Source of the DNA: a virus
Lineage: Duplodnaviria > Heunggongvirae > Uroviricota > Caudoviricetes
Virus record (IMG/VR): IMGVR_UViG_2537562091_000003
DNA length: 6,220 nucleotides
Direction: 5' to 3' (one strand)
The position numbers and the translations under genes were made by a program. Below are positions 1 to 6,220 of this stretch, piece after piece; position 1 is the stretch's first letter, and each line of letters begins with the position of its first letter. The notes beneath the pieces were generated by a model. That model was not told the DNA's origin, did no database searches, and saw nothing but the letters and a program-made list of their open reading frames with translations.

Positions 1-2
1 GT

Positions 3-449
3 ACAGATGAAGGCTGGCTGTATCTGGCAGTGGTCATTGACCTGTGGTCACGTGCCGTTATTGGCTGGTCAATGTCGCCACGCATGACGGCGCAACTGGC
101 CTGCGATGCCCTGCAGATGGCGCTGTGGCGGCGTAAGAGGCCCCGGAACGTTATCGTTCACACGGACCGTGGAGGCCAGTACTGTTCAGCAGATTATCAG
201 GCGCAACTGAAGCGGCATAATCTGCGTGGAAGTATGAGCGCAAAAGGTTGCTGCTACGATAATGCCTGCGTGGAAAGCTTCTTTCATTCGCTGAAAGTGG
301 AATGTATCCATGGAGAACACTTTATCAGCCGGGAAATAATGCGGGCAACGGTGTTTAATTATATCGAATGTGATTACAATCGGTGGCGGCGGCACAGTTG
401 GTGTGGCGGCCTCAGTCCGGAACAATTTGAAAACCAGAACCTCGCTTAG
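3..449 (+). CDS. insF: IS3-family transposase OrfB (DDE integrase catalytic region), C-terminal part; 5' end lies outside the window
   Basis: Frame-3 translation is open from base 3 ([24 protein letters not shown]...[14 protein letters not shown]...[15 protein letters not shown]...[14 protein letters not shown]) to TAG 447-449. It contains the second D and the E of the DDE motif in the contexts typical of IS3 OrfB. The M at 30 in the ORF track is an internal GTG (Val), not the true start. Confidence 0.88.
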
Positions 450-479
450 GCCTGTGTCCATATTACGTGGGTAGGATCA
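441..479. repeat. IS3 right terminal inverted repeat (IRR)
   Basis: Terminal about 39 bp ends in ...gtaggatca at 479, i.e. the TGATC... terminus of IS3 in reverse complement. The exact inner limit of the IR is approximate. Confidence 0.6.
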
Positions 480-602
480 ATTCACCTAAATACGAGGCAT
501 TGCTGTAGTTGAATTGCATTGCTGTATTAGCCTGACAGTGACAGAATACGATATTGACTCTGTCACTTGTGAAATGGTCAGAATGGTTAGCAGTTATGGT
601 GA

Positions 603-809
603 TCAGTCAACCACCAGGGAATAATCCTTCGTATTCTTATCGTGCTTTACTAACGCGGCCTCAATTGCCCTGAATGCTTCCAGAGACACTTGATGTTCTA
701 TACATGCAATTACAACATCCGGGTAACCCATCGAAATGGTGCTATTAAGCATAGTTTTTACACGAACCTGCTCCTGGGAGGGGGCATCAGTGTATTGATC
801 TTTATGCAT
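603..809 (-). CDS. hypothetical small protein (68 aa), function unknown
   Basis: ATG at 809-807 is preceded on the minus strand by GGAG with an 8-nt spacer (GGAGCGACAAAATG); stop TGA at 605-603. Not recognised by sequence. It sits where a prophage accessory gene would be expected, downstream of gnsB. An internal Met (MLNSTISM...) is an alternative shorter start. Confidence 0.45.
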
Positions 810-1020
810 TTTGTCGCTCCATGCGTTTGCTCTTCACTTACGGCTAAAAATATAACGTCAAATCACTCAGCATGAAAGAGTGAAAGATTCAGCGCGTTTC
901 CCTTACATAATCTGTCGTTTGTATTCTCTTCAGGCATACCGGAAAGACTAGGTATTGTCACACAACCAATACCATCGACAATCGAGATTTATACCTATTC
1001 GGTAATGTTTAAATATAACA

Positions 1021-1043
1021 AAACCCCGTAAAAACGAGGTTTA
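1021..1043 (-). terminator. possible weak intrinsic terminator downstream of gnsB
   Basis: Minus strand reads AACCTCG-tttta-CGGGGTT followed by TT: a roughly 7-bp stem with one G-U pair and a short U tract, about 60 nt after the gnsB stop. Confidence 0.3.
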
Positions 1044-1104
1044 TGGGTAATTTGTATTGTTGAATAGCATCTGATGAGAAATTGATGCTAATACTATAAA
1101 CAGA

Positions 1105-1278
1105 CTAGATTAAATCAATCTTGATATCATAGCTTTCAAGACCAGTCATTTTTTCCCGTGCAGTAAACTGGATACTGGTAACTTCTTTCCCGGTCTTTTT
1201 CTTAAGCTCAATGATTTTTTTTGTTATATATTCAGAAATATCTGCTTCTGTTTTTGTTTTTAACTCTTCAATGTTCAT
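1105..1278 (-). CDS. gnsB: GnsA/GnsB-family small protein (57 aa)
   Basis: Translation MNIEELKTKTEADISEYITKKIIELKKKTGKEVTSIQFTAREKMTGLESYDIKIDLI matches the length and the conserved FTAREKMTGLESYD motif of GnsA/GnsB as recalled. SD AGAGGA sits 5 nt before the ATG at 1278 (the second of two adjacent ATGs). The track ORF extending to 1371 is an unsupported N-terminal extension. Gene order gnsB-ynfN-cspI matches the Qin prophage of E. coli K-12. Confidence 0.8.
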   Translation of the reverse strand: MNIEELKTKTEADISEYITKKIIELKKKTGKEVTSIQFTAREKMTGLESYDIKIDLI

Positions 1279-1450
1279 CATTTCCTCTTTTAGTCTGTTA
1301 TGACTTTCCTGGTACACAGTAGTGTCAATTATATGGAGCAAACGTATAAAAGATAAGATGAAACATCGCAATAATCAACATACGACGGTCTAAATTTCAC
1401 ACAAACAGATAAAGATGATTATCATTTATTATCAATGCATTAGAATCAAA

Positions 1451-1606
1451 TCAATTCAAGAGTCTCATTGCTGCTTCCAGAATTTCTTCTGAAGTTACAT
1501 GTCGATCCGCTGCTACATAAATGACTTTATGATCTCCGGTCAGAGATGGAAACCCTGCAGCCATTACAGTGAGGTGTGTTGTTTCGCCATTTGGATATTC
1601 ACGCAT
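1451..1606 (-). CDS. ynfN: YnfN-like small cold-shock-associated prophage protein (51 aa)
   Basis: 51-codon ORF MREYPNGETTHLTVMAAGFPSLTGDHKVIYVAADRHVTSEEILEAAMRLLN lying between gnsB and cspI, as ynfN does in Qin. Start chosen at the internal ATG 1606-1604; GGAG lies 11 nt upstream, which is suboptimal. Alternative starts at 1627 or 1642 would give 58 or 63 aa. Assignment is by size and position, not verbatim sequence recall. Confidence 0.55.
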   Translation of the reverse strand: MREYPNGETTHLTVMAAGFPSLTGDHKVIYVAADRHVTSEEILEAAMRLLN

Positions 1607-1722
1607 GATGGTGTTAACTCCGGTCATCACTGGCACTACCATTGCTGGTTCAGAGTTAAAAAAAACTATTATTTTTTCATAATGTTACCGTAATATGTGA
1701 GTATCCATCGACTAGACACTAA

Positions 1723-1746
1723 GCAAAAAAGCTCCCGAAGGAGCCT
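1723..1746 (-). terminator. intrinsic terminator downstream of cspI
   Basis: Minus strand: GCTCC-UUCG-GGAGC (GC-rich 5-bp stem with a UUCG tetraloop; + strand 1731-1744) followed immediately by UUUUUU (complement of the A run 1725-1730). About 200 nt downstream of the cspI stop. Confidence 0.45.
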
Positions 1747-1951
1747 TCATTTTCACTTTCTTAAATCTAACGACAGACGGCTAACATTTAAGTATTGTGA
1801 AATATTATCAAATGTAATCATCATTGATTTACAAAAGATACATTTTGCCCCGAAAGGATTCCTGTCAGAAACATCAAAAGATGATGTTCTATACTGAGAA
1901 CCATGGCAACACGGGCATCTAAAGTGAATATGGTTTGTAATATTTTCTACC

Positions 1952-2164
1952 TCAAAGTGCCACAACATGAACAGCCGCGGGGCCTTTAGGTCCGTTCTCA
2001 ATACCAAATTCGACTTCCTGATTCTCAGTTAACGTTTTGAAATCGTTGCTCTGAATAGCTGAGAAATGGACAAACACATCTTTGCTACCATCTTTCGGCG
2101 TGATGAAACCAAAACCTTTTTCAGGGTTAAACCATTTCACTAAACCAGTCATTTTGTTAGACAT
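1952..2164 (-). CDS. cspI: cold-shock protein, CspA family (CspI-like), 70 aa
   Basis: Translation [70 protein letters not shown] carries the RNP1 (KGFGFI) and RNP2 (VFVHF) motifs of the cold-shock domain and matches CspI as recalled. SD AAGG precedes tandem ATG ATG; the second ATG (2164) gives the canonical MSNKM N-terminus. Confidence 0.92.
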
Positions 2165-2344
2165 CATTATTACCTTTTGAAGAAGTTAGCCCTTGGGCAG
2201 AATGGTCCGAAAAAAAATATCAGAGAGAAAAACCAACAAGGAAATCTCAAGAGGTACAAATAATAAAATTATAACAATGACTGCTTCAGATAATTTTGTA
2301 ACAAACCAGAACACCATTAACGCATGATTAACCAACCATAGCAA
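2165..2344 (-). promoter_or_regulatory. cspI promoter and long 5' untranslated leader (cspA-type)
   Basis: Minus strand has -35 TTGCTA (+ coords 2344-2339), a 17-bp spacer and -10 GTTAAT (2321-2316), in an arrangement resembling the cspA promoter (TTGCAT-17-CTTAAT). The predicted leader is about 145 nt. Just upstream of the SD the leader contains GCCCAAGGGC...AAAGGTAATA, parallel to cspA GCCGAAAGGC...AAAGGTAATA. An AT-rich UP-like region lies upstream (2345-2460). Confidence 0.5.
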
Positions 2345-2527
2345 GGATTACTTTTGTAAAGAAAAACACACGAATGAAACAATAGCTTTATTTATTAATA
2401 AAACGTGTCATTCTGTCTAATGACCTTTTATCTTACCCTTAAAATTTCAAGGATTTTGACTCATGGAAGAGTCCTTTTTATTTAAATTTCACATTCAGCG
2501 CTAAAAATAATCCGATTTAATATTAAT

Positions 2528-3555
<1,028 letters not shown>

Positions 3556-3668
3556 GGATATTTATCAGGATTTATCGGCTTCAAATCCCCGGATATGTTA
3601 AATCTTACCTCATCAGTGATGGGCACTGGCGGGAGGAGGATGTCAATCTGATAAACACAGAGGCGACT

Positions 3669-3929
3669 ATGGATTACACAAATCTACCAAAACAAACTTT
3701 TGCTGATTTAATCGCACTCAGGCAAGCAGTCGTAGCTCTAATCAACTTGTTGCCGGAGAAGGAAAAGGAATTAGTTAAAGCGCTTCTTAACAGAACTGCC
3801 GCCGATTTTTCATCATATCCACTGACAGATGACCTTGCGGACCTTCCTGAATTAATTGCAGCGTCCGCCAATAAGCTTACTGAAGAGATTTACCCTCCTC
3901 AAAAATCTTCACAAAATTCCTGCGAGTAA
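3669..3929 (+). CDS. hypothetical acidic small protein (86 aa), convergent to the lysis operon
   Basis: ATG 3669 is preceded by AGAGG with a 5-nt spacer. The product (MDYTNLPKQTFADLIALRQAVVALINLLPEKEKELVKALLNRTAADF...) looks like a real helical protein, not low-complexity. It occupies an otherwise unexplained 321-bp gap between the 183-aa gene and the lysozyme. Its 3' end overlaps the 3' end of the 183-aa gene by 53 bp. The competing minus-strand ORF 3674-3871 is Ser/Ala/Arg-rich and looks like an antisense artefact. Confidence 0.4.
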   Translation: MDYTNLPKQTFADLIALRQAVVALINLLPEKEKELVKALLNRTAADFSSYPLTDDLADLPELIAASANKLTEEIYPPQKSSQNSCE

Positions 3930-4428
3930 CTTCAATGCAATAATCGTAAAACGCCGCAAACTGCTCATCGCGGCGTTTTTTTTCATCTTCAGAAGGAATC
4001 AGCACCGACAATTTTTTATTCAGATCAGCGACGCTGCCCTCCAGTTTTTCAATGGGCGATTCAATATCATCTTTTTCTGACCGCAATGCCGTCGGTGGCG
4101 TCTTCAGAGAACCAGTAATTCTTCCCGGTAGCTTTCCTTTGTAGGTTATCCACACATTCTGCGCCTCTAAAATTATGGGGCGCTTTTCCGGCGACTGCTC
4201 ATCCCCTTCACATAACCCGGCAGCAACATCCAGGAAGACCTGTCTGATGCTCCTTCTGGCTGCTGCCTCATAAAACTCCAGCGCAGCTCCTTCAACACGG
4301 TCCATGGCGACATCCAGGCCAAAAATTTCACCGTCAAAGCGTTCTTTGTCCTGTAAGGCTACAGTTACCGTAACTTTATTCTCAAAATTACGGACTCCTT
4401 TCACAACCAGTTCATAGTCTTGAGTCAT
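3877..4428 (-). CDS. uncharacterised phage protein (183 aa) in the holin-endolysin slot; possibly a DUF1327/YdfR-type protein
   Basis: ATG 4428 lies 4 nt after the holin stop, with GAGGAGAG overlapping the end of the holin gene, indicating translational coupling. No transmembrane segment or catalytic motif was recognised. In Qin of E. coli K-12 the gene between essQ and rrrQ is ydfR; the family assignment is by position and vague recall only. Confidence 0.8.
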   Translation of the reverse strand: MTQDYELVVKGVRNFENKVTVTVALQDKERFDGEIFGLDVAMDRVEGAALEFYEAAARRSIRQVFLDVAAGLCEGDEQSPEKRPIILEAQNVWITYKGKLPGRITGSLKTPPTALRSEKDDIESPIEKLEGSVADLNKKLSVLIPSEDEKKRRDEQFAAFYDYCIEVTRRNFVKIFEEGKSLQ

Positions 4429-4432
4429 TGGA

Positions 4433-4648
4433 TTACTCTCCTCTCGCAGCCTTACGCCTGTCTTCTTTAATCTTGAAATAAAGATTTGTCAGATACGTCA
4501 GCATGCCAAATACCAGACTACCCAATACACCTATTGCCGCCCACTGTGAGGGCGTGACTTTATCGAGCAACTGTAAAAACCAGTAGCCAGCACTGCCTGC
4601 AGAGGTGCTGTAGGCGATGCCCGTTGTTAACTTATCCATGGATTTCAT
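4433..4648 (-). CDS. class II holin, phage 21 S-type pinholin with dual-start motif (71/68 aa)
   Basis: Translation [71 protein letters not shown] is near-identical to phage 21 S (S21-71) as recalled. Two in-frame ATGs (M1 and M4: MKSM) form the antiholin/holin dual-start. SD GGAGGTGAGG lies upstream. The track ORF extending to 4732 is an unsupported N-terminal extension. Confidence 0.92.
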
Positions 4649-4738
4649 AGCCTCACCTCCGCAGATAACGGATGGTGTACACGGTTTGGTTCGAAGAAGG
4701 AAAGAAGTTACATTAGCGTAAGGCCCGAACATCTATTC

Positions 4739-4770
4739 AAAAAGAAAAACGCCAGCAATTATTCTGGCGT
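4739..4770 (-). terminator. rho-independent terminator downstream of the AraC-family gene
   Basis: Minus strand: ACGCCAG-(8-nt loop)-CTGGCGT, a perfect 7-bp GC-rich stem, followed directly by TTTTCTTTTT. Located about 70 nt after the regulator's stop and about 90 nt upstream of the holin start. Confidence 0.65.
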
Positions 4771-4838
4771 AGCTAAAAATATCGTATAATCTTACACTTC
4801 AAAAAATAACTTTATAAAATGCCATCACATCATATCTT

Positions 4839-5552
4839 CTAAGAAAATCTTGATAAATATTGGTGCGGAGGCACACCAAAATATCCTCTAAAAACACTTA
4901 CAAAATATGATGCATTGTCATACCCGCATATTCCCGCCACCTTGCCGACAGTATGGTTACTGTAGATCAATAATCTTTGCGCCATCATCATTCGTTCTTC
5001 AAGAATTAATTTACTAAACGATAACCCTTCGTCTTTTAATTTTCTTTTTAACAAACTCTCGCTCATATATAATCTTGAAGATATATCACAAAGTCTCCAT
5101 GACGCTGAGATATCCGAGTGAATAATAGCCTTAACTTTACAACCTAAGCTATTAAGACTTCCGAACAAAAAACTTTGCACTATTTTCTCTGAAGATAAGA
5201 CAGCAAGACATGCAAGTGATATTTGATTTCTAACTACATCCACGGTTTTGCTATCACAATTCAAGCATGCAACCAAGTTCTTTAACAATGAAAAATCTTC
5301 ACATTCTACTATCAAGTATGACGGATAAAACCTTCTTACAGAAAAAGGTGAGAGTGTGTAGTTTTTAAAGAAATCATTAACTGTTTTCTCCTCAACATCT
5401 ACGATCATTAGATGATCTGTATTTGACGAAAAAAGATCTTTTAAATTGTATTCAATGAGGACAGCATTTCCTTTTTTAAACAAAATATCTTCTTTACCAA
5501 TTCGGACACCAAACGAGTTCAACACCAAAATGATAGAACATATGTATGGCAT
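4839..5552 (-). CDS. AraC/XylS-family transcriptional regulator (AppY/EnvY/Rns-like), AT-rich moron
   Basis: C-terminal 100 aa carry the family's double helix-turn-helix signature (WRLCDISSRLYMSESLLKRKLKDEGLSFSKLILEERMMMAQRLL...GICGYDNASYFVSVFRGYFGVPPHQY), aligning by eye with AppY/EnvY. The gene is markedly more AT-rich than the flanking lysis genes. Preferred start is ATG 5552 with SD AGGTGG 5 nt upstream; the track's start at 5561 is a GTG placed too close to that SD. Confidence 0.85.
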   Translation of the reverse strand: MPYICSIILVLNSFGVRIGKEDILFKKGNAVLIEYNLKDLFSSNTDHLMIVDVEEKTVNDFFKNYTLSPFSVRRFYPSYLIVECEDFSLLKNLVACLNCDSKTVDVVRNQISLACLAVLSSEKIVQSFLFGSLNSLGCKVKAIIHSDISASWRLCDISSRLYMSESLLKRKLKDEGLSFSKLILEERMMMAQRLLIYSNHTVGKVAGICGYDNASYFVSVFRGYFGVPPHQYLSRFS

Positions 5553-5732
5553 ATTATCCACCTGATATCATTGGGGTTACACCAGGTAAGTATAGGTGGA
5601 AAATCAATATTCGCCAGTTCAACAATAAGGAAAATCTCATTGCATCACAACTATAAAACCATGTGTTTAACTCACAAAAAACAAATCATTAAACTAATCT
5701 GTTATATTATAATAGCTGCGTGCAATAATAAT

Positions 5733-5760
5733 ATTATATGCTCTTAATATTCACTTGAAA
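5733..5760 (-). promoter_or_regulatory. candidate sigma70 promoter for the AraC-family gene, abutting the IS1 terminus
   Basis: Minus strand has a perfect -10 TATAAT (+ coords 5738-5733) with a weak -35 TTTCAA (5760-5755, 16-bp spacer) only 6 bp from the IS1 end. The region is very AT-rich, so several alternative -10-like hexamers exist, e.g. TATTATAAT about 25 bp downstream. Confidence 0.3.
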
Positions 5761-5765
5761 TATCG

Positions 5766-6220
5766 GTAATGACTCCAACTTATTGATAGTGTTTTATGTT
5801 CAGATAATGCCCGATGACTTTGTCATGCAGCTCCACCGATTTTGAGAACGACAGCGACTTCCGTCCCAGCCGTGCCAGGTGCTGCCTCAGATTCAGGTTA
5901 TGCCGCTCAATTCGCTGCGTATATCGCTTGCTGATTACGTGCAGCTTTCCCTTCAGGCGGGATTCATACAGCGGCCAGCCATCCGTCATCCATATCACCA
6001 CGTCAAAGGGTGACAGCAGGCTCATAAGACGCCCCAGCGTCGCCATAGTGCGTTCACCGAATACGTGCGCAACAACCGTCTTCCGTAGCCTGTCATACGC
6101 GTAAAACAGCCAGCGCTGGCGCGATTTAGCCCCGACATAGCCCCACTGTTCGTCCATTTCCGCGCAGACGATGACGTCACTGCCCGGCTGTATGCGCGAG
6201 GTTACCGACTGCGGCCTGAG
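5766..6220 (-). mobile_element. IS1 insertion sequence, insB-proximal end with terminal inverted repeat; element continues beyond the window end
   Basis: 5766-5788 ggtaatgactccaacttattgat is the IS1 terminal inverted repeat; the InsB reading frame follows on the minus strand and is still open at 6220. The A6C frameshift site and insA would lie just outside the window. Confidence 0.92.
5780..6220 (-). CDS. insB: IS1 transposase InsB reading frame (part of the InsAB' fusion transposase), 5' partial
   Basis: Minus-strand frame reads [146 protein letters not shown], recognised as IS1 InsB. Stop TAA at 5782-5780; the frame is open to the window edge. Confidence 0.92.

Follow-up and report, generated by a model that had tools for sequence, protein, structure and literature searches.

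An AraC/XylS-family regulator gene as a putative moron in the Q-to-holin slot of a Qin-like Escherichia coli prophage

The DNA considered here, called the window, is the whole 6,220-nucleotide (nt) stretch of the IMG/VR virus record IMGVR_UViG_2537562091_000003, and the element of interest is a gene for an AraC/XylS-family transcription regulator located just upstream of a phage holin gene. Positions 1-5764 of the window match the Qin-like defective prophage of Escherichia coli B REL606 with 99.9% identity (4 mismatches and 1 indel), and none of the differences found by sequence comparison falls within 4739-5764. All genes lie on the minus strand. Read from high to low coordinates, they are the end of the insertion sequence (IS) IS1, the AraC-family gene, a P21-type holin gene, a YdfR-like open reading frame (ORF), a lysozyme gene, a gene for an Rz-like (DUF2514) protein, cspI, ynfN, gnsB, a small phage ORF and an IS3 fragment. 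The prophage is defective, and is broken by IS3 and IS1. An earlier note, made from the letters of the window, had described the regulator gene as an AT-rich moron with its own promoter and terminator. The features of the module and of its borders, all on the minus strand, are the following (GC, guanine plus cytosine content; aa, amino acids).

4433-4648, minus: P21-type holin gene with an MKSM dual start, first gene of the lysis cassette (Pfam Phage_holin_2_1, 116 bits)
4739-4770, minus: predicted intrinsic terminator, hairpin 4770-4749 followed by a T-tract 4748-4739 (terminator scan)
4771-4838, minus: 3' untranslated spacer of 68 nt from the stop codon to the terminator (sequence reading)
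4839-5552, minus: AraC/XylS-family regulator gene, 237 aa, stop codon at 4839-4841 (product identical to RefSeq WP_001146314.1)
5553-5764, minus: native upstream region of 212 bp, 30.0% GC (composition; 100% identical to REL606)
5558-5563, minus: Shine-Dalgarno sequence AGGTGG, 5 nt before the ATG (sequence reading and conservation in homologues)
5589-5594, minus: candidate -10 hexamer TATACT of a proximal promoter (conservation across homologues)
5612-5617, minus: candidate -35 hexamer CTGGCG, 3/6 matches to the consensus (conservation in alignment A5, described below)
5765-6220, minus: right end of IS1 (GGTAATGACTCCAAC...), given as context (Pfam DDE_Tnp_IS1, 248 bits)

The regulator gene and its place in the prophage

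The ORF finder placed the start of the regulator gene at a GTG codon (5561), giving an ORF that runs from 5561/5552 to 4839. We take the ATG at 5552 as the predicted true start, because the GTG falls within the Shine-Dalgarno sequence and because all homologues begin with M-x-x-I/T-C-S. The Shine-Dalgarno sequence itself is invariant among homologues of 60-100% identity and nearly so in the gene of the related regulator PatE. The protein comprises an N-terminal cupin-like regulatory domain (residues ~1-135) and a C-terminal double helix-turn-helix (HTH) domain (~136-237). Both the HTH_18 model of Pfam (59.9 bits for a cut-off of 33.6, profile positions 2-79 of 80) and the HTH_AraC model (42.6 bits for a cut-off of 26.6) score above their cut-offs and the whole domain is covered, so that the double HTH is complete and a truncation is excluded; the protein stops 6 residues before its 243-aa relatives, past the last helix. 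The possibility raised in the earlier note, that the gene might be a degenerate copy with a broken HTH, is thus not borne out. Many unrelated strains share the intact ORF in identical form, and the ratio of nonsynonymous to synonymous substitution rates (dN/dS) is 0.17-0.22 in comparisons with homologues of 60-86% identity. We argue from these values for long-term purifying selection and, on that ground together with the wide conservation of the gene, for a regulator that is functional in general.

The regulator gene differs sharply in composition from the lysis genes that follow it. Its GC content is 33.6% and its GC content at third codon positions (GC3) is 0.31, as compared to 47.2% GC for the lysis cassette at 2528-4648 (z = -7.3) and a GC3 of 0.52-0.53 for the holin and lysozyme genes. 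Individually, the holin, lysozyme and Rz genes have 46.8%, 51.7% and 46.2% GC. The whole regulator module has a GC content of 32%, and members of the family are all AT-rich (31-37% GC).

The terminator that follows the gene is a 7-bp stem with 5 G-C pairs and an 8-nt loop, and reads ACGCCAG-AATAATTG-CTGGCGT, then TTTTCTTTTT, on the gene's strand. Its RNA folds at -11.3 kcal/mol (z = -2.5), a value equalled by 3/200 shuffled sequences, and the holin gene begins 90 nt downstream of the T-tract. The terminator sequence is unchanged in loci where the AraC genes are only 76% identical. IMG/VR prophage contigs that extend far enough downstream number 79, and 66 of them have the exact terminator; 12 of the 13 loci without the exact pattern fall in the group of 86% homologues, in which L008 has lost 1 nt of the stem. 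An analogous hairpin is found at the equivalent place downstream of a 50% homologue (L017). The terminator is absent upstream of the holins in the K-12 prophages Qin and DLP12, and the homology of the window to both of them begins only ~20-30 nt before the holin ATG. From this limit we assign the DNA between that point and IS1, terminator included, to the cargo; the terminator thus belongs to the cargo and not to the lysis cassette, and travels with the regulator gene. A second terminator-like hairpin at 4879-4860 was rejected as incidental, since it is made up of codons of the gene (FGVPPHQ) and its T-tract is poor.

The interval between the antiterminator gene Q and the holin gene is used by other cargo elsewhere, namely cspB/cspF in K-12 Qin, in line with the earlier note, and nmpC in DLP12. 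Homologues of the regulator of 50-100% identity, some of them in sequenced phages, occupy the interval between Q and a P21-type holin gene, where Q can belong to any of three different antiterminator families. Of the 79 IMG/VR loci, 78 have such a holin no more than 400 nt downstream. For homologues of 76-86% identity, the order is Q, blc (opposite strand), ybgA, the AraC gene, the terminator and the holin; the order Q-blc-ybgA-AraC-holin was seen in phages Lambda_ev203 (L009) and IdasGreatGrand (L010) and in enterobacterial contigs (L004-L008). A 60% homologue (L016) directly follows a Q of the PF03589 type. In the locus of the 50% homologue, a lambda-type Q is followed by a tR'-like terminator, a promoter, the gene, a terminator and a P21-type holin, with no other cargo. 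The blc lipocalin gene (opposite strand), the YbgA/2-thiouracil-desulfurase-like gene and the AraC-like gene form a recurrent three-gene cargo block between Q and holin. The records of Lambda_ev203 and IdasGreatGrand annotate the AraC-like gene as 'hypothetical protein', and a paper on infant-gut lambda phages lists the blc neighbour as a moron.

Inserted where related phages carry other cargo, deviant in base composition and followed by a predicted terminator of its own, the regulator gene is best described, from these comparisons, as a putative moron: a self-contained cargo gene in the Q-to-holin slot of a Qin-like lambdoid prophage. The analysis agrees with the earlier note on the slot, on a strong compositional deviation from the lysis genes and on a terminator at 4739-4770 of the minus strand, which the comparative loci show to be conserved with the gene.

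The exact regulator protein is encoded on at least 1000 contigs. The gene is found in the laboratory strain REL606 and in other E. coli B isolates, and its sub-clade is common in commensal and laboratory E. coli: 851 of the 5,426 complete genomes of the species (~16%) have the region. Sequenced temperate phages carry it too. In species-representative genomes of Shigella, Citrobacter, Salmonella, Edwardsiella and Hafnia, full-length matches reach only ~27-33%, and Escherichia matches in such genomes are at ~29-34%. The PatE-like clade, taken at more than ~45% identity, appears essentially confined to the E. coli mobilome. A single 85% homologue was found in species-representative genomes, on a contig of a 'Candidatus Nanosynbacter' metagenome-assembled genome (L019) that is probably E. 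coli contamination. Another short contig, from a Planococcaceae metagenome-assembled genome (L027) and with an E. coli-type homologue of 30% identity, also looks like E. coli contamination.

Relationship to PatE and other regulators

The C-terminal ~100 aa with two HTH motifs and the N-terminal cupin-like regulatory/dimerisation domain place the protein in the AraC/XylS family. Databases name it only generically, and PHROGs assigns it to phrog_1450, whose function is listed as unknown. The protein aligns with PatE over 237/237 residues without gaps (48% identity, E = 3e-77) and with PsrA over the C-terminal 160 residues (47%). Full-length identity is 33% with GadW, 30% with AppY and 29% with YdeO, and identity to GadX (40-41%) concerns the DNA-binding domain only. 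The C-terminal domain is 65% identical to that of PatE, and recognition helix 1 is identical at 9/10 positions. The earlier note had placed the protein near the AppY/GadX/Rns group, which agrees with its relation to AppY over the full length, to the DNA-binding domain of GadX and to the fold of Rns (see below). It had also stated that the N-terminal domain was not recognisable as that of any specific member; this has to be corrected, as the alignments with PatE, GadW, AppY and YdeO run end to end.

The top match in NCBIfam is the YdeO model NF007407, which is covered end to end at 112.3 bits, to be read against an equivalog cut-off of 348; the GadX model NF007432 gives 90 bits for an equivalog cut-off of 500. 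The regulator is therefore a relative of YdeO and GadX, but an ortholog of neither. A confident AlphaFold2 model of the protein was obtained, with a predicted local distance difference test score of 90.8 and a predicted template modelling (TM) score of 0.85. In this model, the C-terminal domain can be overlaid on the DNA-binding domain of GadX at 1.2 Å. The whole-protein model resembles Rns, CsvR and ToxT, and the N-terminal domain resembles the regulatory domains of ExsA, AraC and RhaR. Regulators of the Rns/ToxT type have fatty-acid pocket residues between their domains (for example H20/R75 in Rns and K31/K230 in ToxT).

Closely related to PatE over its full length and carried on a lambdoid prophage, the regulator extends the PatE/PsrA/PsrB/AppY group with a distinct sub-clade, ~48% identical to PatE and located in the Q-to-holin slot.

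Upstream signals, IS1 and the rest of the window

The earlier note had based a promoter for the regulator gene on a perfect TATAAT in an AT-rich upstream region. The region is indeed AT-rich and contains two perfect minus-strand copies of this hexamer (5738-5733 and 5711-5706), but TATAAT is not a conserved promoter element. About 0.4 copies per strand would be expected by chance in upstream DNA of 30% GC, by our estimate, and a promoter scan of the region returned 6 sites compared to 5.3 in shuffled sequences, which is no excess. Only the 85-100% group keeps the part of the region with TATAAT; in the 76% group, this part has been lost or has diverged. With no acceptable -35 hexamer at 16-18 nt, a likely chance origin and no conservation, the TATAAT hexamers were rejected as the main promoter.

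A promoter belonging to the gene is better supported by another pair of hexamers, CTGGCG-17-TATACT, located closer to the start codon and conserved down to PatE. We aligned the upstream regions of 8 loci whose proteins are 47-100% identical, including PatE of O157 Sakai and the homologue of phage mEp332 (alignment A5). Invariance is limited to three blocks: TGG-C/T-A/G-A, followed 17-18 nt on by TATACTT and ~30 nt further by the Shine-Dalgarno sequence and ATG. The flanks of TATACTT diverge across the 8 loci while TATACTT stays unchanged. The -35 hexamer of more distant homologues is TTGGCA or TTGGTA, and the promoter scan found ATGGCA-17-TATACT (9/12) in Lambda_ev203 and TTGGCA-18-TATACT (10/12) upstream of the 50% homologue, where it is the top match of the region. 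Among the IMG/VR loci, the -10 motif is located 35 nt before the ATG in 74/78. We infer from this conserved -35/-10 footprint, which constitutes strong comparative evidence, that the gene has its own proximal promoter, from which transcription is predicted to start near 5582.

Two other upstream candidates were rejected. A hairpin that would mask the Shine-Dalgarno sequence (CCACCT at 5599-5594 with AGGTGG at 5563-5558) folds no better than shuffled sequences (z = -1.3 and -0.8), and CCACC is not kept in the loci of the 60% and 50% homologues or in PatE. A hybrid promoter formed with the end of IS1 is unsupported, as the IS1 terminus has no -35-like hexamer at a usable distance from any -10.

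The IS1 starts exactly at 5765, 212 bp before the ATG, and its transposase ORF points towards the regulator gene. Homology to REL606 ends at 5764; in REL606 itself, the upstream DNA runs 406 bp from the AraC gene to a ybgA pseudogene. The IS1 junction of the window is missing from REL606, and no match to it was found among species-representative genomes or among the complete genomes of E. coli (5,426). Two strains (H1 and H2) carry an apparent IS1 in the same intergenic region at other positions. Intact loci show a conserved distal promoter-like element, TTTACA-16-TATGAT (10/12), just after ybgA. It adjoins an inverted repeat, CACTATG-N5-CATAGTG, and lies ~250-360 bp upstream of the regulator gene (L009, 3727-3778; REL606, L001, ~10170-10215; alignment A1, columns ~55-110).

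An Rfam scan detected no known RNA family within 4739-5765. Elsewhere in the window, it matched the cspA-type thermoregulator 5' untranslated region (RF01766) at 1906-2322 on the minus strand, with 109.8 bits for a gathering score of 78; the match spans the leader and the start of cspI. Other AT-rich patches (28-35% GC) are located at 900-1500, around gnsB, and at 2170-2530, in the intergenic region between cspI and the Rz gene, so that the regulator is not the sole compositionally deviant cargo in the prophage. In the lysis cassette, the lysozyme encoded at 3022-3555 (minus) has a hydrophobic N-terminus that resembles the signal-anchor-release type. The Rz-like gene at 2528-3025 (minus) contains an embedded ORF in another frame (2578-2874), which has a lipobox-like LTSC and resembles RzoQ. 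The YdfR-like ORF at 3877-4428 (minus) encodes 183 aa, of which the DUF1327 domain spans residues 1-112 only. YdfR of K-12 has ~103 aa and the REL606 copy is a pseudogene in RefSeq; the ORF of the window could result from a fusion or represent a read-through variant.

Possible function and comparison with known systems

Both PatE and PsrB are activators that bind the promoters of hdeA and gadE; PsrA increases GadE and YhiF (PMC10877973). AppY regulates AR2 acid-resistance genes and is in turn controlled by H-NS and RpoS (PMC10057817). The psrA gene responds to a small RNA that counteracts xenogeneic silencing (PMC13502914). Prophage AraC-like regulators, namely PatE, PsrA/PsrB and AppY, are thus already known to plug into host acid-resistance or virulence circuits.

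Taking all observations together, we consider that the gene is probably a moron encoding a PatE/PsrA-like AraC/XylS transcription factor that acts on host genes. Our confidence is high for the general mechanism, which can be outlined from the sequence features. In the lysogen, the regulator would be transcribed from its own proximal promoter, and the terminator at 4770-4739 would stop the transcript before the holin gene, allowing the regulator to be expressed without triggering lysis. Once an intact phage enters the lytic cycle, transcription by Q-modified RNA polymerase would continue across the regulator gene and past its terminator to reach the lysis genes, as for the Shiga toxin (Stx) phages. 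The protein would bind AT-rich host promoters via its two HTH motifs and activate them in trans. As with its relatives, control is likely to be exerted mostly through the amount of protein synthesised (H-NS silencing, stationary phase) and not by a known ligand. Such a protein would in principle be able to rewire host regulons.

The earlier note had left the target regulon open. The prophage regulators PatE, PsrA and PsrB of enterohaemorrhagic E. coli, which it had missed, narrow the likely regulon to the GAD/acid-fitness genes (PMC10877973). Since PatE, PsrA/PsrB and AppY are all tied to GAD genes and recognition helix 1 is nearly identical to that of PatE, we tentatively propose gadE and hdeAB as the most likely targets, with acid resistance being raised as a result.

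Several observations weigh against this proposal or against its expression in the sequenced strain. The N-terminal domain is only ~35% identical to that of PatE, so that inputs and partners may differ, and recognition helix 2 differs from that of PatE at 4/12 positions, which means that target specificity is not assured. We found no functional study in a literature search on the exact protein, by accession and by keywords. The promoter of the window matches the consensus at 8/12 positions, with the weak -35 hexamer CTGGCG, and is below the threshold of the scanner. Native DNA farther upstream than -212, to which the conserved distal promoter-like element belongs, was either lost or moved away by the IS1; as the insertion separates the gene from its native upstream DNA, regulation in the sequenced strain is possibly non-native. 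Finally, the gene is AT-rich and its defective prophage is riddled with ISs, so that it may stay silent in most conditions.

One alternative is that the protein is an active, host-directed regulator whose regulon is other than acid resistance and consists, for instance, of anaerobic or energy-metabolism genes (as for AppY), or of motility, biofilm or adhesion genes. The differences from PatE in the N-terminal domain and in recognition helix 2 would fit this view, as would the wide margin by which the equivalog cut-offs of the YdeO and GadX models are missed. The targets of AppY are pleiotropic and extend beyond acid-resistance genes, whereas PatE, PsrA/PsrB and AppY itself are all documented on GAD acid-resistance genes (PMC10877973, PMC10057817). 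The near identity of recognition helix 1 to that of PatE also argues for the acid-resistance genes. GadW and YdeO, two further relatives, act on gadE. We regard a different regulon as a somewhat unlikely outcome, but one to be taken seriously.

Another possibility is that in the sequenced strain the gene is a silent passenger, kept silent by H-NS in a decaying prophage and contributing nothing measurable. The low GC content of the module, the prophage broken by IS3 and IS1, the weak -35 hexamer of this allele and the loss of conserved upstream DNA to IS1 are all compatible with it, and the relatives appY and psrA are under H-NS/Hha-type control. However, an ORF that is intact and identical across many unrelated strains, with a dN/dS of ~0.2, points to long-term selection on the protein, and the silenced relatives PatE, PsrA and AppY still give phenotypes under the right conditions; we therefore find this explanation improbable.

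Least probable is a regulator that serves the phage, by controlling the blc/ybgA cargo, or by setting when or how strongly the neighbouring P21-type lysis cassette is expressed: the 50-100% clade almost always lies directly upstream of a P21-type holin (78/79 IMG/VR loci and the locus of the 50% homologue) and travels with blc and ybgA in many loci, but the 60% and 50% homologues occur without blc or ybgA, PatE-type homologues are located at the tail-fibre end, far from lysis genes, the conserved terminator insulates the regulator from the holin, and host genes are the targets of all characterised relatives (PMC10877973, PMC10057817).

A moron encoding a host-directed transcription factor is thus the reading that we prefer. 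We are doubtful of the stronger and composite version in which the protein is an active factor, induced in stationary phase or by stress, that reshapes a host acid-resistance or stress regulon in non-pathogens, and in which IS1 has possibly altered its expression. The effect of IS1 may go either way, by severing the distal promoter-like element or by breaking an H-NS-silenced AT-rich tract; if it is real, the IS1-bearing allele would be a natural regulatory variant. If active, the regulator could contribute to strain differences in acid tolerance, including those between E. coli B and K-12. With a promoter, gene and terminator within ~1 kb, the module would also offer a simple system for the insulation of cargo from a lysis cassette. 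It reveals no new kind of mechanism.

PatE is like the present regulator in the motif M-x-x-x-C-S-V/I-I-L at its N-terminus, in being prophage-borne and AT-rich (35% GC), and in having TTGGCA-18-TATACT at an equal distance from the ATG. It differs in its location, at the tail-fibre/invertase end of prophage Sp1 and not in the Q-to-holin slot, and its activity on gadE and hdeA was demonstrated by experiment (PMC10877973), whereas that of the present protein is deduced from sequence.

PsrA and PsrB are also AraC-like, lie downstream of Q in a lambdoid prophage and act on the host GAD island. They adjoin an ileZ-argN-argO tRNA cluster, which in Stx phages accompanies stx downstream of Q. In contrast to the present gene, psrA is located in a rearranged region, is not next to the holin and is associated with effector and pch genes of a pathogen, whereas the present gene is found in commensal and laboratory E. 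coli B. PsrA is annotated with 195 aa and is without the first ~40 residues of the N-terminal domain of the family; in O157 Sakai (L012, 28804-29391), the residues missing from the psrA product include the M-x-x-x-C-S-V-I-L motif.

AppY, encoded by DLP12 in K-12, shares the prophage location, the AraC/XylS two-domain layout and the AT-rich composition, and feeds into acid resistance (PMC10057817). Its gene lies past the tail-fibre genes, at the far end of DLP12, and its sequence is much more distant. GadW, GadX and YdeO are chromosomal acid-fitness regulators, whereas the present regulator, which is orthologous to none of the three, is on a mobile element outside the acid-fitness island. The virulence regulators Rns, CsvR and ToxT, for which full-length structures have been solved, are only ~18-26% identical to it, and the relative orientation of the domains differs in the model (global TM ~0.45).

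As for the slot, the gene shares its Q-to-holin insertion site with stx, cspB/cspF and nmpC. The logic of an own promoter in the lysogen, combined with read-through from the late promoter upon induction, is established for stx and would apply here by extension. These other cargo genes encode a toxin, a cold-shock protein and a porin, whereas the cargo of the present prophage is predicted to be a transcription factor.

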